DNA of 39,263 nt from Escherichia phage Penshu1, in the sequence record MK903281.1; one strand, written 5' to 3'. Shown piece after piece: positions 5,674 to 39,226 of this stretch. Within the stretch, counting starts at the first letter, position 1. Each line of letters starts with the position of its first letter. A program made the translations under genes and the position numbers. The notes below the pieces were generated by a model. It searched no databases. It had not been told where the DNA came from and saw only the letters and a list, made by a program, of their open reading frames with translations.

Positions 5674-5749
5674 CAGACCTACAGTTACTGGCCTTGTGGC
5701 TGGGAGCACTAGCAGTATTCACTTTAATCCATCGCAGAAGAGGTTAACC

Positions 5750-5770
5750 CTAAACTATCACTATAGGATT
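5750..5770 (+). promoter_or_regulatory. Phage RNAP promoter (phi1.1-like)
   Basis: CTAAACTATCACTATAGGATT, +1 G at 5766. Confidence 0.75.
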
Positions 5771-7368: not shown

Positions 7369-7390
7369 CGTCTAGGCCACCAGCTAGACC

Positions 7391-7412
7391 CTAAGCTATC
7401 ACTATAGGACAA
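7391..7412 (+). promoter_or_regulatory. Phage RNAP promoter (variant CTAAGCTATCACTATAGGAC)
   Basis: One mismatch to the family consensus upstream of the core; +1 G at 7407. Confidence 0.65.
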
Positions 7413-8107: not shown

Positions 8108-8262
8108 CTGAGGTTGAGAAGAAATACATCGTGGAGCTTGAGGGGCGCGTTCAGTCCTTCGAGGTTCCGGTGTACGCAAAGTCTCTTGAAGAGGCTACCC
8201 TGAAGTCCCAAGAGTATGAGGACGCTGGGTTTGTGGTCGGACGGATTCGTCCTGAGACCTAA
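8104..8262 (+). CDS. gp2-like inhibitor of host RNA polymerase, 52 aa
   Basis: Start moved to ATG 8104 (GGAAGGAG RBS); [35 protein letters not shown] aligns with T7 gp2 ([35 protein letters not shown]). Confidence 0.75.
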
Positions 8263-8280
8263 ACTATCACTGTAGGACAG
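8259..8280 (+). promoter_or_regulatory. Phage RNAP promoter, degenerate (CTAAACTATCACTGTAGGACA), phi2.5-like
   Basis: Family match except A-to-G at position -3; +1 G at 8275; directly upstream of the SSB gene. Confidence 0.55.
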
Positions 8281-16284: not shown

Positions 16285-16337
16285 GTCTAACCGATAGTCA
16301 TATCCTATCAATCCAACAGTCATCCATAGGTGAAACA

Positions 16338-16359
16338 CTAAACTATCACTATAGGGACT
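16338..16359 (+). promoter_or_regulatory. Phage RNAP promoter (phi6.5-like)
   Basis: CTAAACTATCACTATAGGGACT, +1 G at 16354. Confidence 0.75.
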
Positions 16360-17989: not shown

Positions 17990-19550
17990 ACGTGAAGGGT
18001 TCGCTGCTGAAGGAGCCAAAGCGGTCTATGACCGGCTGAAGAACGGTAGACAGCCATATGAGACACGCGCTCAGAACTGTGCTGCTGTCACTATCCCGTC
18101 ACTGTTTCCTAAGGAGTCCGACAACTCGTCTACTGAGTACACAACTCCGTGGCAAGCTGTAGGTGCTCGCTGTTTGAACAACTTGGCTGCAAAGCTTATG
18201 TTGGCGTTATTCCCTCAGTCACCGTGGATGCGACTGACAGTCTCAGAATATGAGGCCAAGACCTTGAGTCAGGACTCAGAGGCTGCTGCTCGTGTTGACG
18301 AAGGGCTGGCTATGGTCGAGCGTGTGTTGATGGCCTACATGGAGACTAACAGTTTCCGTGTCCCATTGTTCGAAGCACTGAAGCAGCTTATCGTCTCCGG
18401 TAACTGTCTTCTCTACATTCCAGAGCCTGAACAGGGAACCTACAGTCCCATGCGAATGTACCGCTTAGTGTCTTACGTTGTTCAACGTGATGCGTTCGGT
18501 AACATCTTGCAGATTGTGACTCTCGACAAGGTAGCGTTTAGTGCTCTACCGGAAGACGTGAAGTCTCAACTCAACGCAGACGACTATGAGCCTGACACAG
18601 AGCTTGAAGTGTATACGCACATCTACCGTCAGGACGACGAGTATCTGCGTTACGAGGAGGTGGAAGGCATTGAGGTAACAGGGACCGATGGTTCCTACCC
18701 GCTGACTGCATGTCCATACATCCCGGTACGAATGGTTCGACTGGATGGTGAAGACTATGGTCGTTCTTACTGCGAGGAGTATCTGGGAGACCTGAACTCG
18801 CTGGAGACGATTACAGAAGCTATCACCAAAATGGCTAAGGTAGCCTCCAAAGTGGTTGGCCTCGTTAACCCGAACGGCATCACGCAACCTCGTCGTCTTA
18901 ACAAAGCGGCTACAGGTGAGTTTGTGGCTGGTCGTGTTGAGGACATCAACTTCCTGCAACTAACGAAAGGTCAGGACTTTACGATTGCCAAGTCGGTGGC
19001 TGACGCTATCGAGCAGCGTTTAGGCTGGGCCTTCCTTCTTAATAGTGCTGTTCAGCGTAATGCCGAGCGAGTAACTGCTGAAGAGATTCGTTATGTTGCT
19101 GGCGAACTGGAGGCGACCTTAGGTGGCGTGTATTCAGTGCAGTCACAAGAGCTTCAGTTACCTATCGTCCGTGTGCTGATGAACCAGCTTCAGTCTGCTG
19201 GCATGATTCCTGACCTCCCGAAAGAAGCGGTTGAGCCTACGGTCTCCACTGGTCTGGAAGCGTTAGGTCGTGGTCAAGACTTAGAGAAGCTGACTCAGGC
19301 AGTCAACATGATGACCGGGCTACAGCCTCTGCAACAGGACCCAGACATTAACTTGCCGACCCTGAAGTTGCGACTGCTGAATGCCTTAGGTATTGACACT
19401 GCTGGTCTGCTATTGACTCAGGACGAGAAGATGCAACGTATTGCTGAACAATCCGCTCAAGGAGCTGTGGTCAACGGTGCGTCTGCTGCTGGTGCTAACA
19501 TGGGTGCTGTTGTAGGTCAGGGAGCTGGTGAGGACATGGCTCAAGCCTAA
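17982..19550 (+). CDS. Portal (head-tail connector) protein (T7 gene 8 homologue), 522 aa
   Basis: Extended collinear identity to T7 gp8 (YETRAQNCA, PWQAVGAR, YRLVSYVVQRDAFGN, GLVNPNGITQPRRL, AEEIRYVA). Confidence 0.95.
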   Translation: MAEREGFAAEGAKAVYDRLKNGRQPYETRAQNCAAVTIPSLFPKESDNSSTEYTTPWQAVGARCLNNLAAKLMLALFPQSPWMRLTVSEYEAKTLSQDSEAAARVDEGLAMVERVLMAYMETNSFRVPLFEALKQLIVSGNCLLYIPEPEQGTYSPMRMYRLVSYVVQRDAFGNILQIVTLDKVAFSALPEDVKSQLNADDYEPDTELEVYTHIYRQDDEYLRYEEVEGIEVTGTDGSYPLTACPYIPVRMVRLDGEDYGRSYCEEYLGDLNSLETITEAITKMAKVASKVVGLVNPNGITQPRRLNKAATGEFVAGRVEDINFLQLTKGQDFTIAKSVADAIEQRLGWAFLLNSAVQRNAERVTAEEIRYVAGELEATLGGVYSVQSQELQLPIVRVLMNQLQSAGMIPDLPKEAVEPTVSTGLEALGRGQDLEKLTQAVNMMTGLQPLQQDPDINLPTLKLRLLNALGIDTAGLLLTQDEKMQRIAEQSAQGAVVNGASAAGANMGAVVGQGAGEDMAQA

Positions 19551-19568
19551 ACTATCACTATAGGAACA
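19547..19568 (+). promoter_or_regulatory. Phage RNAP promoter (phi9-like)
   Basis: CTAAACTATCACTATAGGAACA, +1 G at 19563. Confidence 0.75.
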
Positions 19569-19639: not shown

Positions 19640-20524
19640 ATGTCTCAATCAGTTTATGCCGAGTTCGGCGTTAGCTCTAATGCAGTCACTGGTTCCGTTG
19701 AGGACCTGAACGAACACCAGAAGTCTATGCTTGAACAGGACGTAGCTGTTCGTGATGGCGACGACGCTATTACCTTCAAGCAACTGGAAGCTGAAAGTGA
19801 AGAGGCGACCGAAGAAGACGAGAACGTAGAAGAGACTGAAGGTGAAGAAGACCACGAGTCAGATGACGAAGAGTCTGAGACCGATGGTGAGCAGCCTGAG
19901 TTCATCGAACTGGGTGATGCACCGAAAGAGCTGACTGAAAGTGTCACCGCTCTGGATGAGAACGAAGCTGCATTCGACGACATGGTGTCTTCTGCTGTGG
20001 AAGCTGGCAAGGTCACTGCTGATGAAATTACCTCTATCAAGGCTGAATACGCCAAGGACGGTAAGCTGTCTGACGCATCCTACGCTAAGTTGCAGGAAGC
20101 AGGTTACACCAAGCGTTTCGTAGATTCGTTTGTCCGTGGTCAGGAAGCACTGGCTGAACAGTATGCTGCTGGAGTGGTTCGCTACGCTGGTGGAGCTGAA
20201 CAGTTTAATCGCATCCTGTCACACCTTGAGTCCAACGACCCGTCAACTCGTGAAGCACTGGAAGCTGCTATCGTTCGTAAGGACATTGCGACTACCAAAG
20301 CTCTGCTGAATCTGGCTGGCAAGACTCTGGGTAAAGCTGTGGGTGTTAAACCTCAGCGTACCATCACCGCCCAGGCTAAACCTGTGGTCGCACCTAAGGC
20401 TCCTCAGACCGAAGCATTCAGCTCCAAGGCTGACATGATTAAGGCTATGAGTGACCCGCGATACCTGCGTGACGCTAAGTACACGATGGAAGTTCGCGCT
20501 AAGGTAGCTGCCTCAAGCCTGTAG
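19640..20524 (+). CDS. Capsid assembly (scaffolding) protein (T7 gene 9 homologue), 294 aa
   Basis: Start moved to ATG 19640 (AAGGAG RBS); acidic protein with VAVRDGDDAI and C-terminal IKAMSDPRY as in T7 gp9. Confidence 0.9.
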   Translation: MSQSVYAEFGVSSNAVTGSVEDLNEHQKSMLEQDVAVRDGDDAITFKQLEAESEEATEEDENVEETEGEEDHESDDEESETDGEQPEFIELGDAPKELTESVTALDENEAAFDDMVSSAVEAGKVTADEITSIKAEYAKDGKLSDASYAKLQEAGYTKRFVDSFVRGQEALAEQYAAGVVRYAGGAEQFNRILSHLESNDPSTREALEAAIVRKDIATTKALLNLAGKTLGKAVGVKPQRTITAQAKPVVAPKAPQTEAFSSKADMIKAMSDPRYLRDAKYTMEVRAKVAASSL

Positions 20525-20526
20525 GA

Positions 20527-20548
20527 CTAAACTATCACTATAGGGAGA
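20527..20548 (+). promoter_or_regulatory. Phage RNAP promoter for the capsid gene (phi10-like, full consensus)
   Basis: CTAAACTATCACTATAGGGAGA, +1 G at 20543, followed by a 108-nt leader. Confidence 0.8.
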
Positions 20549-20650: not shown

Positions 20651-21694
20651 ATGGCAAACGTTCCGGGTCAGAAAATTGGTACAGACCAAGGTAAAGGTAA
20701 ATCCAGTTCCGACGCTCTGGCGTTGTTCCTGAAGGTCTTTGCTGGTGAAGTCCTGACCGCATTCACTCGCCGCTCTGTAACTGCTGACAAGCATATTGTC
20801 CGTACCATTCAGAACGGTAAGTCTGCTCAGTTCCCGGTCATGGGTCGCACCTCTGGTGTGTATCTGGCTCCTGGTGATCGACTGTCCGATAAACGTAAAG
20901 GTATCAAACATACCGAGAAAGTGATTACCATTGATGGTCTGCTGACTGCCGATGTGATGATTTTCGACATTGAAGACGCGATGAACCACTATGACGTGGC
21001 TGGCGAGTATTCCAACCAGTTAGGTGAAGCGCTGGCTATCGCTGCCGATGGTGCGGTTTTAGCTGAAATGGCTATCCTGTGCAACCTTCCGGCTACATCC
21101 AACGAGAACATTGCGGGTCTAGGCACTGCCTCCGTACTGGAAGTTGGTAAGAAAGCTGACCTCGACACCCCGGCTAAACTGGGTGAAGCAATCATCGGTC
21201 AATTGACCATTGCTCGCGCGAAGTTGACCTCCAACTACGTTCCTGCTGGCGACCGTTATTTCTACACCACGCCGGACAACTACTCTGCAATCCTCGCGGC
21301 TCTGATGCCGAACGCTGCTAACTATTCTGCGCTGATTGACCCAGAGACTGGTAACATCCGTAACGTGATGGGCTTCGTTGTTGTTGAAGTTCCACACTTG
21401 ACTCAGGGTGGTGCTGGAGAAACTCGTGGTGATGATGGCATCACTATTGCGACTGGTCAGAAGCACGCCTTCCCAGCTACTGCTACTGGTGATGCTAAAG
21501 TTGCTTTGGACAACGTTGTTGGTCTGTTCTCTCACCGTTCTGCTGTAGGTACTGTGAAGCTGCGTGACTTGGCGCTGGAACGTGACCGTGACGTCGATGC
21601 TCAGGGCGACCTGATTGTCGGTAAGTACGCTATGGGTCACGGTGGTCTGCGTCCTGAAGCGGCTGGCGCACTGGTTTTCAGCCCAGCGGCGTAA
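20651..21694 (+). CDS. Major capsid protein 10A (T7 gene 10 homologue), 347 aa
   Basis: Collinear high identity to T7 gp10A (KHTEKVITIDGLLTADV, AILAALMPNAANY, HRSAVGTVKLRDLALER, YAMGHGGLRPEAAG). Confidence 0.97.
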   Translation: MANVPGQKIGTDQGKGKSSSDALALFLKVFAGEVLTAFTRRSVTADKHIVRTIQNGKSAQFPVMGRTSGVYLAPGDRLSDKRKGIKHTEKVITIDGLLTADVMIFDIEDAMNHYDVAGEYSNQLGEALAIAADGAVLAEMAILCNLPATSNENIAGLGTASVLEVGKKADLDTPAKLGEAIIGQLTIARAKLTSNYVPAGDRYFYTTPDNYSAILAALMPNAANYSALIDPETGNIRNVMGFVVVEVPHLTQGGAGETRGDDGITIATGQKHAFPATATGDAKVALDNVVGLFSHRSAVGTVKLRDLALERDRDVDAQGDLIVGKYAMGHGGLRPEAAGALVFSPAA

Positions 21695-21825
21695 GCACCT
21701 TTAGCCAACCTAACGTCGCTACAGTAGCGGCTGCGCCTGAAGAGGAGACTCTAACTCCTCAACAGAAAGCTGCGCGTACTCGTGCTGCGAACAGGGCCGC
21801 TAAACTGGCTGAGTCCAACAACTAA
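20651..21825 (+). CDS. Minor capsid protein 10B, made by programmed -1 ribosomal frameshift at GGTTTTC (21673-21679)
   Basis: The same slippery heptamer as T7 sits 13 nt before the 10A stop; the -1 frame stays open for 49 codons to TAA 21823-21825 and encodes ...PEEETLTPQQKAARTRAAN..., resembling the T7 10B extension. Confidence 0.6.
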
Positions 21826-21831
21826 TTGAAA

Positions 21832-21868
21832 CCCCTTGGGTGCCTTCGGGTGCTTGAGGGGTTTTTTT
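21832..21868 (+). terminator. T-phi-like transcription terminator
   Basis: G-U-rich 13-bp stem (CCCCTTGGGTGCC / GGGTGCTTGAGGGG) closed by a UUCG tetraloop, then seven T residues, immediately after the 10B stop. Confidence 0.75.
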
Positions 21869-21878
21869 CGGAGGATTA

Positions 21879-22001
21879 ATGAAGATATGCGTAGGATGCC
21901 ACACGGAGAAGGACTTGAGGTCTTTCACGCCAAATGGCAGGACATGTAAGGGTACACAGAAATACGAGGCGTGCTTTGTCAGAGGTGCAACTATGCCATA
22001 G
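21879..22001 (+). pseudogene. Probable remnant of an Endo VII/HNH-type homing endonuclease gene (N-terminal Cys-motif fragment, 40 codons)
   Basis: ATG with GGAGGA RBS; MKICVGCHTEKDLRSFTPNGRTCKGT...C shares the CxxCxxEK...F.P...C pattern with the N-terminus of the intact Endo VII-like ORF at 25760; the catalytic half is missing. Confidence 0.4.
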
Positions 22002-22067
22002 GACTCCTAAGTGAGAATCCAGAGCATATTGCAAACGCTATACACTACCTTAAAGGAGAGGAGACTT

Positions 22068-22634
22068 ATGGCTCAATACATTCCACTGAATGCTAACGAT
22101 GACTTAGATGCCATCAACGATATGTTAGCTGCTATCGGTGAACCAGCAGTCCTACAGCTTGACGAGGGGAACGCTGACGTCTCGAACGCTCAACGTATCC
22201 TGCATCGTGTCAATCGTCAGGTCCAAGCTAAAGGCTGGAACTTTAACATCAACGAAGCTGCTGTCCTGACACCTGATGTCCAAGACAATAGGATTCGATT
22301 CTTGCCGTCATACCTCCGTGTAATGACCGCTGGGGCCACCAGCTACTACAGCAACATGGGTGGATACCTGTACGACCTATCCACTCAGTCAACCACTTTC
22401 ACCGACCCTATCACGGTAGAGCTTGTGGAGATGAAGCCATTCTCCGAGATGCCTGTGGTATTCAGGGACTACATCGTCACTAAAGCTAGCCGTGAGTTCA
22501 ACGCTAAGTTCTTCGGTAGCCCAGAGTCTGAACTGTACCTTCGTGAGCAGGAAGCAGAACTCTATCAGCAGGTTATGGAGTACGAGATGGACACTGGTCG
22601 CTACAACATGATGTCTGACATCGGGAGGGACTAA
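22068..22634 (+). CDS. Tail tubular protein A (T7 gene 11 homologue), 188 aa
   Basis: Start moved to ATG 22068 (AAAGGAGAGGAG RBS); KGWNFNINE, YIVTKASREFN and FFGSPE match T7 gp11. Confidence 0.9.
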   Translation: MAQYIPLNANDDLDAINDMLAAIGEPAVLQLDEGNADVSNAQRILHRVNRQVQAKGWNFNINEAAVLTPDVQDNRIRFLPSYLRVMTAGATSYYSNMGGYLYDLSTQSTTFTDPITVELVEMKPFSEMPVVFRDYIVTKASREFNAKFFGSPESELYLREQEAELYQQVMEYEMDTGRYNMMSDIGRD

Positions 22635-22861
22635 TGGCTATTCACAACCTGAAGATTCACCGCCAGCACTTTGGTCCGGTACAGCTAGGTCTAAAGACAG
22701 CAGAGCTGAGACTTAACGACCGGGACTTTAAGGTTGGCGACTGGCTTATCCTGAATGAGTGGGACAACGGGTATACTGGACAACAGGTAGCGCGTAAGGT
22801 TGTCCACATTGCTGACGTTGGTGCCATCTCTGAAGGATACGTCCTAATGAGTATGATTTAA
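22634..22861 (+). CDS. ASCH/DUF3850-like small protein, 75 aa, inserted between tail tubular genes
   Basis: HNLKIHRQHFGPVQLGLKTAELRLNDRDFKVGDWLILNEW...YTGQ follows the DUF3850 pattern (LKxxxxxFxxVxxGxKTxExRxNDRxxxVGDxLxLxE...YTG); T7 has no gene between 11 and 12. Confidence 0.6.
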   Translation: MAIHNLKIHRQHFGPVQLGLKTAELRLNDRDFKVGDWLILNEWDNGYTGQQVARKVVHIADVGAISEGYVLMSMI

Positions 22862-22870
22862 GGAGGGCCT

Positions 22871-25228
22871 ATGCCACTAATTACTCAATCAATCAAGAAC
22901 CTTAAAGGTGGCATTAGCCAGCAGCCTGATATACTGAGGTTCTCAGACCAAGGCGAGGCACAGGTTAACTGCTGGTCATCAGAGAGTGATGGCCTCCAGA
23001 AGCGCCCACCTACAGTCTTCAAGCGACGTCTTAACATCGACGTTGGGAGTAACCCTAAGTTCCACCTGATTAACCGTGACGAGCATGAGCAGTATTACAC
23101 CGTGTTCAATGGGTCCAACATTCAGGTAGTTGACTTGAGTGGTAATCAATACTCAGTGTCAGGTGCGGTAGACTACGTTAAGTCCTCCAACCCACGAGAT
23201 GACATCCGTGTCGTTACCGTGGCAGATTATACGTTCGTCGTTAACCGTAAGGTTGTCGTCAAAGGTGGAAGCGAGAAGTCACACTCTGGTTATAACCGCA
23301 AAGCACGAGCTTTAATTAACCTTCGTGGGGGACAGTATGGTCGCACCCTTAAGGTGGGAATCAACGGTGGCGTTAAGGTCTCGCATAAGCTACCAGCAGG
23401 TAATGATGCCGAGAATGACCCACCTAAGGTGGACGCTCAAGCCATTGGTGCAGCTCTGAGAGACCTTCTTGTTACTGCCTATCCTACCTTCACGTTTGAC
23501 CTTGGGTCTGGCTTCCTGCTAATCACAGCTCCTTCAGGGACCAACATTAACTCAGTGGAGACGGAGGATGGCTACGCTAACCAGCTAATAAGCCCAGTCC
23601 TAGACACTGTGCAAACAATCTCTAAACTACCTCTTGCGGCTCCTAATGGGTATATCATTAAGATTCAAGGTGAGACAAACAGTAGCGCCGATGAATACTA
23701 CGTGATGTATGACTCCAACACTAAGACGTGGAAGGAGACAGTGGAGCCGGGAGTTGTCACTGGGTTCGATGTCACCACAATGCCACATGCTCTGGTCAGA
23801 AAGTCTGATGGCTCCTTTGAGTTCAAGACTCTGGATTGGTCCAAGCGTGGTGCTGGTAACGATGACACAAACCCTATGCCTAGCTTCGTGGATGCTACGA
23901 TAAATGATGTGTTCTTCTACAGGAACAGGCTTGGGTTCTTGTCGGGTGAGAACGTAATAATGAGCCGTTCAGCCAGCTACTTTGCGTTCTTCCCTAAGAG
24001 TGTGGCGACACTGAGTGATGATGACCCTATTGATGTAGCTGTAAGTCACCCTCGAATCTCAATCCTTAAGTATGCCGTTCCGTTTAGCGAGCAGCTACTA
24101 CTTTGGTCAGATGAGGTGCAGTTCGTGATGACAAGCTCGGGGGTCCTTACCGCGAAGTCTATCCAGCTTGATGTAGGCTCAGAGTTTGCCTTAGGAGATA
24201 ATGCCCGACCGTTCGCTGTAGGACGCTCAGTCTTCTTCTCAGCACCTCGTGGGTCATTCACCAGCATTAAGCGATACTTCGCTGTAGCAGATGTGTCTGA
24301 CGTGAAGGATGCCGATGATACCACTGGTCACGTACTGTCCTATATCCCTAACGGGGTGTTTGACATTCATGGGACAGGGACCGAGAACTACATCTGCGTC
24401 AACTCTACAGGTGCATACAACCGAATCTACATCTACAAGTTCTTGTTTAAGGACGGCGTACAGCTTCAAGCCTCTTGGTCGCACTGGGAGTTCCCTAAAG
24501 CTGATAAGATTCTGGCGTCTGCGTCGATTGGCTCTACCATGTTCATTGTTCGTCAGCACCAAGGCGGCGTGGACCTTGAGCACCTTAAGTTCATCAAGGA
24601 GGCAACTGACTTTCCGTTAGAGCCATATAGACTCCACGTTGACTCCAAGGTGTCTATGGTAATACCAATTGGCTCATACAACGCTGACACCTATAAGACT
24701 ACGGTTGACATTGGTTCTGCTTATGGTGGAAACGCTCCGTCTCCCGGTCGGTACTATCTTATTGACAGTCAGGGTTCCTACGTGGACCTTGGTGAATTGA
24801 CAGACATCTCAACTGTGGCTATACTAAATGGCGATTGGTCAGGACGTACAGTGTTCATCGGACGGTCTTATCTGATGTCCTACAAGTTCTCACGGTTCCT
24901 GATTAAGATTGAAGACGAGAGTGGCACTCAGTCTGAAGACACTGGACGTCTACAACTTCGTCGGGCTTGGGTCAACTACAAGGACACTGGCGCTCTTAGA
25001 CTCATTGTCAGAAACGGTGAGCGGGAGTTCGTTAACACCTTTAATGGGTACACCCTTGGTCAGCAAACCATCGGGACTACCAACATTGGAGATGGTCAGT
25101 ATCGCTTCGCTATGAATGGTAACGCATTAACCACGAGTCTAACCTTAGAGTCGGATTATCCTACCCCAGTGTCCATCGTTGGCTGTGGCTGGGAGGCGTC
25201 ATACGCTAAGAAAGCTCGTTCCGTCTAA
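22871..25228 (+). CDS. Tail tubular protein B (T7 gene 12 homologue), 785 aa
   Basis: Collinear identity to T7 gp12 (NLKGGISQQPDILR, HLINRDEHEQYY, MPHALVR, GRLQLRRAWVNY, IVGCGWE). Confidence 0.95.
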   Translation: MPLITQSIKNLKGGISQQPDILRFSDQGEAQVNCWSSESDGLQKRPPTVFKRRLNIDVGSNPKFHLINRDEHEQYYTVFNGSNIQVVDLSGNQYSVSGAVDYVKSSNPRDDIRVVTVADYTFVVNRKVVVKGGSEKSHSGYNRKARALINLRGGQYGRTLKVGINGGVKVSHKLPAGNDAENDPPKVDAQAIGAALRDLLVTAYPTFTFDLGSGFLLITAPSGTNINSVETEDGYANQLISPVLDTVQTISKLPLAAPNGYIIKIQGETNSSADEYYVMYDSNTKTWKETVEPGVVTGFDVTTMPHALVRKSDGSFEFKTLDWSKRGAGNDDTNPMPSFVDATINDVFFYRNRLGFLSGENVIMSRSASYFAFFPKSVATLSDDDPIDVAVSHPRISILKYAVPFSEQLLLWSDEVQFVMTSSGVLTAKSIQLDVGSEFALGDNARPFAVGRSVFFSAPRGSFTSIKRYFAVADVSDVKDADDTTGHVLSYIPNGVFDIHGTGTENYICVNSTGAYNRIYIYKFLFKDGVQLQASWSHWEFPKADKILASASIGSTMFIVRQHQGGVDLEHLKFIKEATDFPLEPYRLHVDSKVSMVIPIGSYNADTYKTTVDIGSAYGGNAPSPGRYYLIDSQGSYVDLGELTDISTVAILNGDWSGRTVFIGRSYLMSYKFSRFLIKIEDESGTQSEDTGRLQLRRAWVNYKDTGALRLIVRNGEREFVNTFNGYTLGQQTIGTTNIGDGQYRFAMNGNALTTSLTLESDYPTPVSIVGCGWEASYAKKARSV

Positions 25229-25235
25229 CTTATTG

Positions 25236-25285
25236 AAGGGCCTATAGATTTACCTTAACTATCACTATAGGGACTATAGGCCCTT
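25236..25285 (+). promoter_or_regulatory. Phage RNAP promoter (phi13-like, CTTAACTATCACTATAGGGACT) nested inside a perfect 12-bp inverted repeat
   Basis: Promoter at 25254-25275 with +1 G at 25270; AAGGGCCTATAG (25236-25247) is the exact reverse complement of CTATAGGCCCTT (25274-25285). Confidence 0.65.
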
Positions 25286-25304: not shown

Positions 25305-25763
25305 ATGTATATTCGCAAGGCTGCGGAACAGGATGTCCACTACTTTCTGTGGCATCTTTCAGAAGATGATGTTAATGAGTGCAAAGCAAACTACGGGTCA
25401 ACCGTGGGTCTCTCTGAAAGACTGCTTAAGCACCTATCTCCGTCATCTGTGGTTTTAACGAACGGTGTAGGTGAAGTGTTTGCCTATGGTGGAAACCAAG
25501 GGGATAACGTATGGTTCTTGACTTCCGGTCTGGTCTACAAGCTGGGGCCTAAAGAGAAGCGAGAGTTCATAAAGCGTATCTCTGAGTACAGGGACTTAAT
25601 GTTAGACCAATACGGGACCATCTGGAACTACGTGTGGTCAGGCAATAAGTCTCACATTAAATTCTTGAAGTTGCTTGGGGCTAAGTTCCATGATGATTGG
25701 ACTGTAAGTCCGGTAACTGGTGAGCGTTTTCAACTATTCACTATCTCTAAGGAGCAAAGATGA
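25305..25763 (+). CDS. Gene 13-position protein (internal virion/assembly protein homologue by synteny), 152 aa
   Basis: ORF with AAGGAG RBS immediately downstream of the phi13-like promoter; function assigned by position only. Confidence 0.55.
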   Translation: MYIRKAAEQDVHYFLWHLSEDDVNECKANYGSTVGLSERLLKHLSPSSVVLTNGVGEVFAYGGNQGDNVWFLTSGLVYKLGPKEKREFIKRISEYRDLMLDQYGTIWNYVWSGNKSHIKFLKLLGAKFHDDWTVSPVTGERFQLFTISKEQR

Positions 25764-26146
25764 CCAAGGTTTGTACAGTCTGTAAGATTGAGAAGCCTCG
25801 CTCTGCGTTCTCCCCACGGAAGGACTCAAAGTGTGGTATCCGTTCGGCCTGTAAGTTGTGCCACAATGGTCGAAGCCATAAGAACAAAGGATACGAAAAG
25901 TATCACCTAACTCAGGACGAGTACGATTCAATCCTCAGGTCTCAGGACGGAGTGTGCGCTATATGCAAAACTTCAGGACCTAGCCGAGGGCTATGCGTGG
26001 ACCACTGCCATGACTCCGGTAAGGTGCGTGGTATTCTGTGCCACACCTGCAACCTTAAGCTGACACGTAGAAACTATCCGTCCACCTGCGACAATTTCGA
26101 CGAGAAGGCTGCTGAGTATCTGGCTGGTAGCCGGAAGGGGGATTAG
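25760..26146 (+). CDS. Endonuclease VII-like (His-Me finger / HNH superfamily) putative homing endonuclease, 128 aa
   Basis: GVCAICKTSGPSRGLCVDHCHDSGKVRGILCHTCNLKL matches the T4 Endo VII core (CLICQ...HLDHDH...GKVRGLLCNLCN); N-terminal CxxC...C...C zinc motif; inserted between genes 13 and 14. Confidence 0.8.
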   Translation: MTKVCTVCKIEKPRSAFSPRKDSKCGIRSACKLCHNGRSHKNKGYEKYHLTQDEYDSILRSQDGVCAICKTSGPSRGLCVDHCHDSGKVRGILCHTCNLKLTRRNYPSTCDNFDEKAAEYLAGSRKGD

Positions 26147-32000: not shown

Positions 32001-32927
32001 GTGGAGCATAGCCTGACTGGTAGTAAGCGTAAGTTCGATGACCGATGGCTGAAGACCGCTGGTATCTCTGACGAGCAATGGAATGGCATTAAGTCCCTAA
32101 TCCGTGAGTCAGTGACTCGTGGGCCAGACGGGAAGTACACCATCAAGGATAAGAAGGCGTTCAGTAAGGACCCAAGGGCTATGGACCTGTGGCGTATGGG
32201 TGACACCATCGCTGATGAAACGTTACTACGACCTCATAAGCTGTCCAACATGGACGCCAAGGCTTATGGTACTATCGCTAAGACTGTCCTTCAGTTTAAG
32301 AACTTCGTCATCAAGTCCATCAATGGACGTACCATGCGAACCTTCTATAACGCCACGAAGAACAACCGAGCGATGGACGCTGCTCTGTCCACTGTGATAT
32401 CGATGGGTCTTGCTGGTGTCTACTACATGGCTCAGGCTCACGTCAAGGCTTACGCTATGCAGGATGGTCGAGACCGTGATTACCTCAAGCAAGCTCTTGA
32501 CCCGACTATGATTGGTTATGCGGCTCTATCCCGTAGCTCACACTTGGGTGGCCCACTTGGGGTCGCCAACATTCTGGGTGGCATCGCTGGGTATGAGGAC
32601 ACTAAGTTACTCCGCTCGTCTATCCTTCCGCGCTCACCTACCGAGAAGACTGAGAAGCCAATCGCCTTTGGTGCGGCTACAAGTGACCCTGTGATGAATG
32701 TTGTTGGTAACTTCTTGGAGCAGGTTCCAGCTTTCGGATATGCTGCTAACGTTGGCTCTTCGGCTTACAACTTGGCTGGCTACCTCAAGGCTGATACTCG
32801 TGTCAACGAGCGTGACTACATGACCGGGATGTATAATACGTTCCGTGAACTGGTTCCGAACGACCCCATTACCCAGAAGCTGTTACTTGGAACGTTTGAG
32901 GAGCAAGGTATCCACATCAAGGACTAA
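29037..32927 (+). CDS. Internal virion protein (T7 gene 16 homologue) with a divergent N-terminal domain, 1296 aa
   Basis: From about residue 200 onward collinear with T7 gp16 (RSTWFGF, TRWNSH, VITGGSPQNL, GAGVDPLTYVP, MENPAMFG, KGTYVPHVY); the first ~200 aa do not resemble the T7 lytic-transglycosylase N-terminus. Confidence 0.9.
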   Translation: MATRGIRNNNIGNIRVSKDQWEGATGDDGAFVTFDTPDSGVRALAKNLMSYGRQGYDSIEKIITRWAPPNENDTQAYIQSVASATGIPATQSLDLTDPDVLASLSEAIGYHETGSRYDKSVYQAGVGRALGGGISPKTPPVSANVFDALTEGLKAKPKVTLGESLPTAAGLNIEGQTPEAPNESFGEMFYKATGETMQEREDRSTWFGFGAATEAEVKNSMVGVAIRAGQTEDSLDVIGDVFNPTRWNSHKWSREELDQIRNAGVLPQYYGVITGGSPQNLTELINLALENQKLDQEKAKAGIGAQLAAGVIGAGVDPLTYVPIAGQVGKGGKLVNKMFTVAAQSGALAGVSEMARTSVAGGDAHVAEAILGGALFGGGMTAIADGLGRALGRNTNEFAGPATRLEARETARNVDGQDLSRLPIQEGEQTFSHQGVKFAEVPNEPGSVRLEDGSILIGENPLNPKTRQVFDEVIEPERAAAGVNLGGLTEIGLKLLRSENPEIRGVAADLVRSPTGMQSGASGKIGTTASDVFERLRAVDHRFYNDIDDAVTEALKDPYFQTAFWRDSGAFRQDIYQRVSMAIEDGSGNLKAELTPGELKVYDLLKNQFDAKREMMENPAMFGRTDAQSIFPGSRFKGTYVPHVYSNQMKELYIKELGSPEALQEAIKKSWLTSYASRPEVKKRVDEALLEADPTLTPDGLAAAVDKYANDKAYGISHTEQFERSSVMEENINGLVGLENNSFLEARNLFDSDMSIVLPNGQTFSVNNLREWDMDKIVPAYNRRVNGDIAIMAGTGKTTKDMKDLVETMMNKAGDDGKLKGEVSTLRDTLKILTGRARRDGSDDAALATVMRTMTDLSFFAKNAYMGVQNLTEIGGMLARGNVRALLHGVPMFRDLAFRNKKVGASEIKALHNVIFGKELDDSIRPSKQDVIDRLRSYSDLGRGAATALGSAKYYTGELAVRSPFTKVLNGTTNYLLDAGRQGFLSDIVEHSLTGSKRKFDDRWLKTAGISDEQWNGIKSLIRESVTRGPDGKYTIKDKKAFSKDPRAMDLWRMGDTIADETLLRPHKLSNMDAKAYGTIAKTVLQFKNFVIKSINGRTMRTFYNATKNNRAMDAALSTVISMGLAGVYYMAQAHVKAYAMQDGRDRDYLKQALDPTMIGYAALSRSSHLGGPLGVANILGGIAGYEDTKLLRSSILPRSPTEKTEKPIAFGAATSDPVMNVVGNFLEQVPAFGYAANVGSSAYNLAGYLKADTRVNERDYMTGMYNTFRELVPNDPITQKLLLGTFEEQGIHIKD

Positions 32928-32945
32928 ACTATCACTATAGGAAAC
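32924..32945 (+). promoter_or_regulatory. Phage RNAP promoter (phi17-like)
   Basis: CTAAACTATCACTATAGGAAAC, +1 G at 32940, overlapping the gene 16 stop codon. Confidence 0.75.
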
Positions 32946-38571: not shown

Positions 38572-38666
38572 CTGAATGAATAACTATGGGCGAAAGCCGC
38601 ATGAATACGCGGTTAGTAACCTATAGTTACTACCAGACTAACCTACTGTTTTATAAGCAGTTTGGA

Positions 38667-38688
38667 CTTAACTATCACTATAGGGAAG
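38667..38688 (+). promoter_or_regulatory. Phage RNAP promoter near the right end (phiOR-like)
   Basis: CTTAACTATCACTATAGGGAAG, +1 G at 38683, downstream of the terminase gene. Confidence 0.7.
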
Positions 38689-39026: not shown

Positions 39027-39185
39027 CGCAATCATGGTAACGATTCATGAGCGGAAGACCTAAGGTCAGTTCATAGCTAACGCTACTCTACTGACCTTAG
39101 CTACTGTAGTCAAGGACTTTAGGTAACACCTTAATAGAAGCTCACTTAGGGTCATCCTACTTATTGGTCTATCCTAGTGTCGCCT

Positions 39186-39226
39186 GACCTACGGTCCTTG
39201 ACCTACAGTGGCTGTGGCCTACAGTA
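39186..39226. repeat. Right-end CCTAC(A/G)GT short direct repeats (three copies)
   Basis: CCTACGGT at 39188, CCTACAGT at 39202 and 39217; same motif as the left-end array, as expected for repeats flanking T7-like terminal repeats. Confidence 0.6.

Follow-up and report, generated by a model that had tools for sequence, protein, structure and literature searches.

A pseudogene of the Endonuclease_7 family, presumably from a free-standing homing endonuclease, between the capsid terminator and gene 11 of a Kayfunavirus genome

Between the capsid terminator and gene 11 of the T7-like phage genome analysed here lies a 40-codon open reading frame (ORF) preceded by a strong ribosome-binding site (RBS) of its own. 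Does this frame encode a small protein in its own right, or is it what a larger gene has left behind? The original prediction, made from the sequence letters, saw in it the decayed remnant of a second insertion of an Endo VII-like homing endonuclease. The comparisons described below point in the same direction. The segment 21869-22096 is probably what remains, as a pseudogene, of an Endonuclease_7-family gene for a presumed free-standing homing endonuclease, a complete explanation to which we assign a probability of about 85%. Its structural part, an Endonuclease_7-family pseudogene with a microhomology-flanked, frameshifting deletion of 247 bp, is essentially certain.

The locus and the surviving fragments

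The window (the whole stretch of DNA analysed, 39,263 bp) is a complete Kayfunavirus genome (K1F/EcoDS1 group, T7-like). Its first 25 kb align with Escherichia phages pO91, YZ1, Mt1B1_P3 and others at ~92-93% identity over ~90% of the length. Short repeated motifs (CCTACAGTC...) close to both genome ends (200-293 and 39185-39210) are consistent with a complete linear T7-like genome with terminal-repeat-associated arrays. Around the ORF, the genes follow the order scaffold, capsid 10A (20651-21694), 10B-like extension, terminator, gene 11, a gene for a 75-aa product and gene 12. The counterpart of gene 11 is annotated as gp11/tail tube in phages YZ1, TM1 and EcoDS1, and on contig L005, one of the carriers of the intact endonuclease gene, it corresponds to the Pfam family Tube (PF17212). 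In the window, gene 11 has preserved its own RBS (AAAGGAGAGGAGAC, 22052-22065). The features of the locus are the following:

21826..21868, + strand: T-phi-like intrinsic terminator (hairpin and run of 7 T), upstream boundary of the insertion site; context, outside the remnant
21869..22048, + strand: all remaining insert-derived DNA, 180 nt out of ~427 nt (from spacer lengths and alignments A1 and A2)
21870..21875, + strand: GGAGGA RBS of the former endonuclease gene, still intact, 3 bases before the ATG and the same in the intact alleles L004-L010
21879..21965, + strand: codons 1-29 of the endonuclease gene (its 5' fragment), in frame, 29/29 residues the same as in the intact protein P0001
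21959..21965, + strand: deletion junction, sole surviving copy of the 7-bp direct repeat GAAATAC, with the breakpoint anywhere within the heptamer
21959..22096, + strand: 3' fragment of the endonuclease gene, codons 110-154 and stop, in the +1-shifted frame, 43/45 residues identical to P0001 residues 110-154 (E 4e-30)
21966..22001, + strand: out-of-frame tail of the ORF (EACFVRGATMP) and premature TAG (21999-22001), made by the frameshift
22068..22634, + strand: gene 11 (tail tubular protein A), from the ORF list, downstream boundary of the insert

The T-phi hairpin has a predicted RNA fold of -25.3 kcal/mol (z -5.3) and was also matched in a terminator scan; its homologue in EcoDS1 carries a terminator annotation, and alignments A1 and A2 show it to be the same whether the site is empty or holds the intact gene or a remnant. 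A structured RNA at the locus was considered and dropped, as an Rfam scan of 21600-22300 gave only a sub-threshold NsiR1 match on this hairpin (19 bits; gathering score 39).

The phage promoter consensus, CTAAACTATCACTATAGG, belongs to a motif of ~23 nt, CTAAACTATCACTATAGG(G/A)A, which recurs at ~10 sites presumed to be promoters of the phage RNA polymerase:

2661-2692, 5738-5769, 7383-7409, 8247-8278, 16326-16357: presumed promoters, repeated motif
19535-19566, 20515-20546, 25225-25271, 32912-32943, 38655-38686: presumed promoters, repeated motif

The site at 20515-20546 lies upstream of gene 10 and that at 25225-25271 upstream of gene 13, with none from gene 10 to gene 12. A consensus scan found no phage promoter in 21869-22068, and no sigma-70-like site was found there either. 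Since nothing between T-phi and gene 11 appears able to start transcription, the intact gene and the remnant would depend for transcription on read-through of T-phi, within transcripts that also cover genes 11 and 12. In T7, genes 11 and 12 are likewise transcribed by terminator read-through.

The ORF itself is as first described. It begins with the ATG at 21879, 11 nt past the T-run of T-phi and just behind the GGAGGA at 21870-21875, and ends with the TAG at 21999-22001 (40 codons, MKICVGCHTEKDLRSFTPNGRTCKGTQKYEACFVRGATMP). Residues 1-29 coincide, far beyond chance, with the N-terminal 29 residues of an intact Endonuclease_7 protein of 154 aa encoded at the same locus in related contigs (BLASTP E 6e-21), and the corresponding 5' fragment codes for the first CxxC of an N-terminal zinc-ribbon-like region. 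The +1-shifted frame downstream reads EIRGVLCQRCNYAIGLLSENPEHIANAIHYLKGEETYGSIHSTEC, and the neighbouring frame downstream of the ORF reads GYTEIRGVLCQRCNYAIGLLSENPEHIANAIHYLKGEETYGSIHSTEC. This 3' fragment (EIRGVLCQRCN...YLKGEE...) runs 29 nt into gene 11, as does the intact P0001-type allele, and retains R-G-x-L-C-x-x-C-N and the C-terminal helix with no translation from the original start.

Profile searches place both the intact gene and the stranded fragment in the same family. The intact orthologue matches PF02945 over profile positions 4-81 of 82 (E 1.6e-19, 70 bits). The out-of-frame fragment 21950-22093 matches positions 50-81 of 82 (E 2.5e-7, 30.9 bits; the curated gathering cut-off is 23.6 bits), and the frame-shifted remnants of the catalytic motif for which the original prediction suggested a search are thus present, in the +1 frame. 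In tblastn, the same downstream frame has 56% identity (E 4e-6) to 'endonuclease VII' genes of Klebsiella podophages. The 40-aa ORF itself does not match the PF02945 profile. These matches indicate that the locus descends from a PF02945 member of which only the last third of the domain remains. The original claim that the gene stops before the catalytic core needs to be amended accordingly in one respect: DHxH is indeed lost, but through an internal deletion of 247 bp, and CxxCN and codons 110-154 persist out of frame.

Window 21879-22096 equals an intact P0001-type gene (190-654 of contig L009) minus 247 bp and plus three substitutions, 215 of the 218 retained nucleotides being the same (98.6%). 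The valid single-deletion alignment is the one anchored on the ATG, as the T-run of the window differs in length by 1 nt. Because the intact gene contains GAAATAC twice, 247 bp apart (in the contexts cacaGAAATACagaag and ggtGAAATACgaggc), the breakpoint can be placed anywhere in 21959-21965, and such a junction is characteristic of slippage, or of recombination, between direct repeats of this short length. As 247 is 3n+1, the deletion shifts the frame, so that 29 native codons are followed by 11 nonsense codons and the TAG. Codons 30-111 were lost, among them C33/C36 (the second Cys pair of the N-terminal zinc ribbon), C86/C89 (the first Zn-ligand pair of the nuclease domain) and the catalytic D103-H104-x-H106; CxxCN (116-120) was kept, but out of frame. 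With DHxH and the first Zn-ligand CxxC deleted, the window copy is not a functional PF02945 member. Of the substitutions, 21953 C>T is silent, whereas the two G>A changes replace Arg with His (22044) and Cys121 with Tyr (21993). The Cys121 position is Cys in 8/8 intact clade members aligned (alignment A3), and its loss would fit drift after inactivation under relaxed constraint.

The segment thus has a disabling lesion relative to intact orthologues, and its truncated frame is conserved nowhere in the sequences searched, as expected of a pseudogene. An exact look-up of the 40-aa product returned no record, blastn with the 203-nt remnant segment gave no match among 50,697 GenBank phage records, and the 25-mer spanning the deletion junction was absent from the IMG/VR scan. 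The product of the ORF, if made, would be a by-product, and the remnant would have no function of its own. The residue matches to P0001 (29/29 and 43/45) and the similarity to Endo VII/HNH genes downstream of an ORF that nowhere recurs as an intact peptide bear out the decayed second Endo VII-like insertion that had been predicted.

Empty, intact and decayed alleles

The intact gene encodes an Endonuclease_7 protein of 143-154 aa (PF02945, His-Me/HNH) and lies between the capsid terminator and the tube gene. Its carriers are uncultured Kayfunavirus-like phages (e.g., IMGVR_UViG_3300045988_000061 and ENA/Logan assemblies). By scanning IMG/VR with back-translated peptide patterns we found one contig of 39 kb (L004) with a complete 143-codon gene exactly at the T-phi/gene 11 junction. 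A large protein collection contained a 154-aa version (P0001), 97% identical to the L004 protein. At least 14 Kayfunavirus-like contigs from metagenomes carry P0001, and nine of these fall into the 20-50 kb class. The order is always capsid, endonuclease gene, tube on the longer P0001 contigs, with a 29-nt overlap with the start of gene 11. Both proteins are clear PF02945 members. The L004-type allele has its own stop (GATTAG) just upstream of gene 11. Altogether, the gene is intact at the site in L004-L010, and remnants occur in the window and in phage YZ1; the junction that the original prediction marked as a past insertion site is therefore the very place where related contigs carry intact orthologues. 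Two other searches added nothing to this set: an IMG/VR scan with an 18-mer covering the RBS and start returned only the known contig and three unrelated genes, and exact 24-mers from the 5' and 3' gene fragments had no match in JGI metagenome contigs.

More distant homologues (P0002, P0003, P0005, P0004 and P0007, with 81, 74, 69, 68 and 65% identity, respectively) occupy this position on further T7-like contigs. Capsid and tube genes flank four of these homologues, and the contig of P0003 (3.2 kb) shows the tube gene downstream only. The tube and nozzle proteins of these contigs differ in length, and the contigs therefore belong to other lineages; the same target locus has been kept across diverged T7-like phages. 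The 75-aa ORF between genes 11 and 12 (22634-22861), whose L005 counterpart has DUF3850/ASCH Pfam matches, is found in the window and in the P0001-type contigs and is missing between tube and nozzle in the P0002 contig (L011).

None of 276 related GenBank records covers the insert segment, all of them aligning in two pieces that skip it. In EcoDS1 and TM1 the site is empty, with T-phi, a short spacer (GCTTAAAGTGAGAGGAGACTT) and then the gene 11 ATG. The intact gene had no DNA match among the 50,697 GenBank phage records, and the intact protein had no orthologue above 40% identity in GenBank phages. Among Kayfunavirus and other T7-like genomes, a minority with a scattered distribution has the intact gene in the T-phi/gene 11 spacer.

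A second decayed allele is present in YZ1 (MG845865.1, 527-621 of L001), one of the closest GenBank relatives of the window. At the T-phi/gene 11 junction it has a 29-nt scar of this endonuclease gene, GGAGGATTAATGAAGATAcGTATA joined to CGCTACCTTAAAGGAGATTAGTAATG. Removing 396 bp from the L004-type allele gives the scar with 2 mismatches; the breakpoint lies in a TATA microhomology of 4 bp. This deletion is in frame and leaves an 11-codon mini-ORF (MKIRIRYLKGD), unannotated in the record. At the 3' end the scar follows the L004 type, whereas the window has the P0001 type, and the two deletions are therefore separate events. Among the closest GenBank matches listed, only YZ1 has the scar, and the other relatives are 27-30 nt shorter and hence empty. 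Presence/absence polymorphism at one precise site is thus observed among close relatives.

The distance from the start of T-phi to the gene 11 ATG summarizes these states: 63 nt in empty sites, 490 in intact alleles, 242 in the window and 92 in YZ1. The P0001-type gene ends in CTTAAAGGAGAGGAGACTTATG, which differs little from the empty-site leader of gene 11 (CTTAAAGTGAGAGGAGACTTATG; alignments A1 and A2), and the insertion therefore apparently took place between the T-run and this leader. The element seems to have borrowed its last 16 codons and stop from host-phage sequence. The last codons of the P0001 type (LKGEETYGSIHSTEC) correspond to the gene 11 leader plus the first 29 nt of gene 11 in empty-site phages; for this leader, window 22049-22067 and EcoDS1 (L003) 569-589 were compared and show one T difference.

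Mobile element or accessory nuclease

The pattern of alleles leads to the question of what the intact gene does. From nuclease class, distribution, site fidelity and conservation we infer that it was most likely a homing endonuclease gene (HEG). It encodes an HNH/His-Me finger nuclease; it is compact, has its own RBS and lies in an intergenic spacer; it keeps strictly to one site across diverged hosts; it is sporadically present, absent or decayed among genomes that are ~93-95% identical; and it is 98.6% conserved between genomes whose flanking essential genes are 92-95% identical.

The last comparison involves the remnant and the intact gene on the one hand and genes 10, 11 and 12 of the same genomes on the other. 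Near the insert, elevated identity is weak evidence, as conservation is high (97-99%) in all relatives where gene 10 ends and gene 11 begins. At window position 22109 (gene 11 +42), the window and all six P0001-type carrier contigs have T, and YZ1, TM1, EcoDS1 and L004 have C. This shared T hints, weakly, at a short co-conversion tract beside the insert; at the gene 11 +99 and +102 markers, the window does not share the state of the P0001-type carriers. Taken together, the higher identity of the remnant and the shared +42 T would be compatible with lateral spread and co-conversion.

HEGs are known to pass through a homing cycle of invasion, degeneration and loss, and the alleles found here could be arranged along it. 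An intact homing endonuclease would cut the insert-less allele in a mixed infection, and its gene would be copied in by recombinational repair. The ancestral allele in the window lineage was of the P0001 type, with 154 codons, the GGAGGA RBS, a 3' end running through the gene 11 leader and a 29-nt overlap. Replication slippage or microhomology-mediated recombination would then have deleted the DNA between the two GAAATAC copies, a kind of deletion that is usual for T7-type phages. The window and YZ1 would represent the degeneration stage, and empty-site phages would carry alleles either never invaded or fully purged.

The gene might instead have been an ordinary, dispensable and non-mobile accessory nuclease, inherited vertically and repeatedly lost by deletion, for instance a structure-specific resolvase like Endo VII or a nuclease directed against host or competitor DNA. 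The name of its family, 'Recombination endonuclease VII' (PF02945), speaks for this, as do its solved relatives, T4 endonuclease VII and Hpy99I, neither of which is a characterised homing enzyme, and the wide occurrence in the genus of its paralogue gp13.5 (25760-26146). We nevertheless regard it as unlikely. A vertically inherited gene sits uneasily with presence in a small minority of ~93-95% identical genomes and absence from all GenBank relatives, and always the same intergenic spacer is occupied across diverged T7-like lineages. The gene is also compact, has its own RBS and is more conserved than the essential genes around it, and these traits, taken with its distribution and constant site, make up the usual signature of free-standing HEGs. 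T7-like phages, moreover, already encode a resolvase (gene 3).

Two further readings accept the nuclease ancestry and concern the present state of the window. In one, the 247-bp deletion is not fixed and reflects either an assembly artefact at GAAATAC or a variant in a subpopulation. Short direct repeats do lie on both sides of the deletion, and a mixed population with and without the HEG segment is described for the related Hafnia phage Ca (PMC8861465); yet a 7-bp repeat is too short to fool a modern assembler, the additional substitution at a clade-invariant Cys is expected after some time in a nonfunctional state, and YZ1 provides an independent natural deletion, so that this reading appears very improbable. 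In the other, the 40-codon ORF has become a functional small protein, either a zinc-ribbon DNA-binding fragment that prevents reinvasion by the intact endonuclease or a tuner of gene 11 expression. A strong RBS and ATG are retained and would permit translation of the peptide, which by chance contains four Cys (C4, C7, C23 and C32) and whose residues 2-27 faintly resemble the His_Me_b4a2 N-terminal domain (E 0.03, below threshold). Its native C33/C36, half of the zinc ribbon, are however deleted, its last 11 residues are frameshift nonsense, it is absent from every other sequence searched, hardly anything of it is left in YZ1, with no substitute in its place, and in most relatives the position is empty. 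We give such a function scarcely any credence, and just as little to the specific proposal that a peptide made from T-phi read-through acts as an anti-homing immunity factor at the homing site or modulates gene 11 translation.

The finding bears chiefly on annotation and phage engineering. The feature at 21879-22001 should be annotated as a pseudogene fragment and not as a hypothetical protein. The Kayfunavirus T-phi/gene 11 spacer tolerates an insert of ~430 bp, which makes it a natural permissive cargo site for engineering. Deposited phage genomes (~50,000) lack the intact gene lineage, which is known from metagenomic assemblies only. Finally, the allelic series at one site (empty, intact, 247-bp deletion, 396-bp deletion) is a possible test system for putative homing by Endonuclease_7-family genes of T7-like phages; our literature search found no biochemical (cleavage) test of this clade.

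Related nucleases and homing genes

The closest comparison lies within the window itself. The intact gene at 25760-26146, whose first 4 nt are shared with the end of gene 13 (25305-25763), encodes a 128-aa Endonuclease_7 protein (PF02945, E 9.4e-18) equivalent to gp13.5 of EcoDS1. The original prediction took the ORF to repeat the N-terminal Cys motif of this gene. Taken alone, that likeness is weak (7/17 identical residues, pairwise E 0.002), and it holds at the level of the family, the intact orthologue sharing 35% identity with the 25760 product (E 1e-17). The idea that the remnant is a duplicate of the 25760 gene was rejected, as 35% protein identity points to a paralogue and not to the source. 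The two genes have PF02945 in common, with an N-terminal CxxC...CxxC followed by CxxC-DHxH-CxxCN, and both are small genes wedged between structural genes; they differ in that gp13.5 lies between genes 13 and 14, is intact in the window and is common in GenBank relatives, from which the gene of the 10/11 junction is absent. Some Kayfunaviruses are reported to have this 'endonuclease VII' gene and others, ST31 among them, to lack it (PMC8861465), so that gp13.5 may be mobile in its own right.

The nearest solved relatives of P0001 are Hpy99I (E 1.8e-10) and T4 endonuclease VII (E 9e-4); the DHxH and CxxCN motifs fall into register. Hpy99I (PDB 3FC3) aligns over P0001 residues 2-44 (the N-terminal Cys-rich region) and 80-143 (the nuclease core), and it is closer to P0001 than T4 endonuclease VII is, the namesake of the Pfam family. 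T4 gp49 is the founding member of the PF02945 family and a junction resolvase. Both enzymes (for T4 endonuclease VII, 1E7D/1EN7/2QNC) resemble the intact protein in their His-Me finger (beta-beta-alpha-metal) core, Zn-binding Cys pairs, DHxH and CxxCN. Identity is low, however, and the roles differ: Hpy99I is a restriction enzyme and T4 endonuclease VII a Holliday-junction resolvase, whereas the gene described here is a sporadic intergenic insert. From the window copy, the catalytic His motif of these enzymes is gone.

With the intact P0001/L004 gene, the window remnant shares locus, RBS and 5' and 3' ends. It differs in the absence of the central 247 bp, in the frameshift, and in the Cys121->Tyr and Arg->His changes of the stranded 3' part.

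Free-standing HNH HEGs of phages provide the general likeness: a small nuclease gene in a spacer, overlapping an essential downstream gene, sporadic in distribution and lost by short deletions. In the Kayfunavirus Hafnia phage Ca, where HEGs are likewise sporadic, a spontaneous HEG deletion of 397 bp has been reported (PMC8861465). The HEG of phage Ca is another gene, of another Pfam clade, at locus 18.5/19, and the window deletion differs from that case in being internal, with both gene ends remaining. The remnant between T-phi and gene 11 is a well-resolved new example of a known phenomenon, HEG degeneration, a phase through which such genes ordinarily pass.
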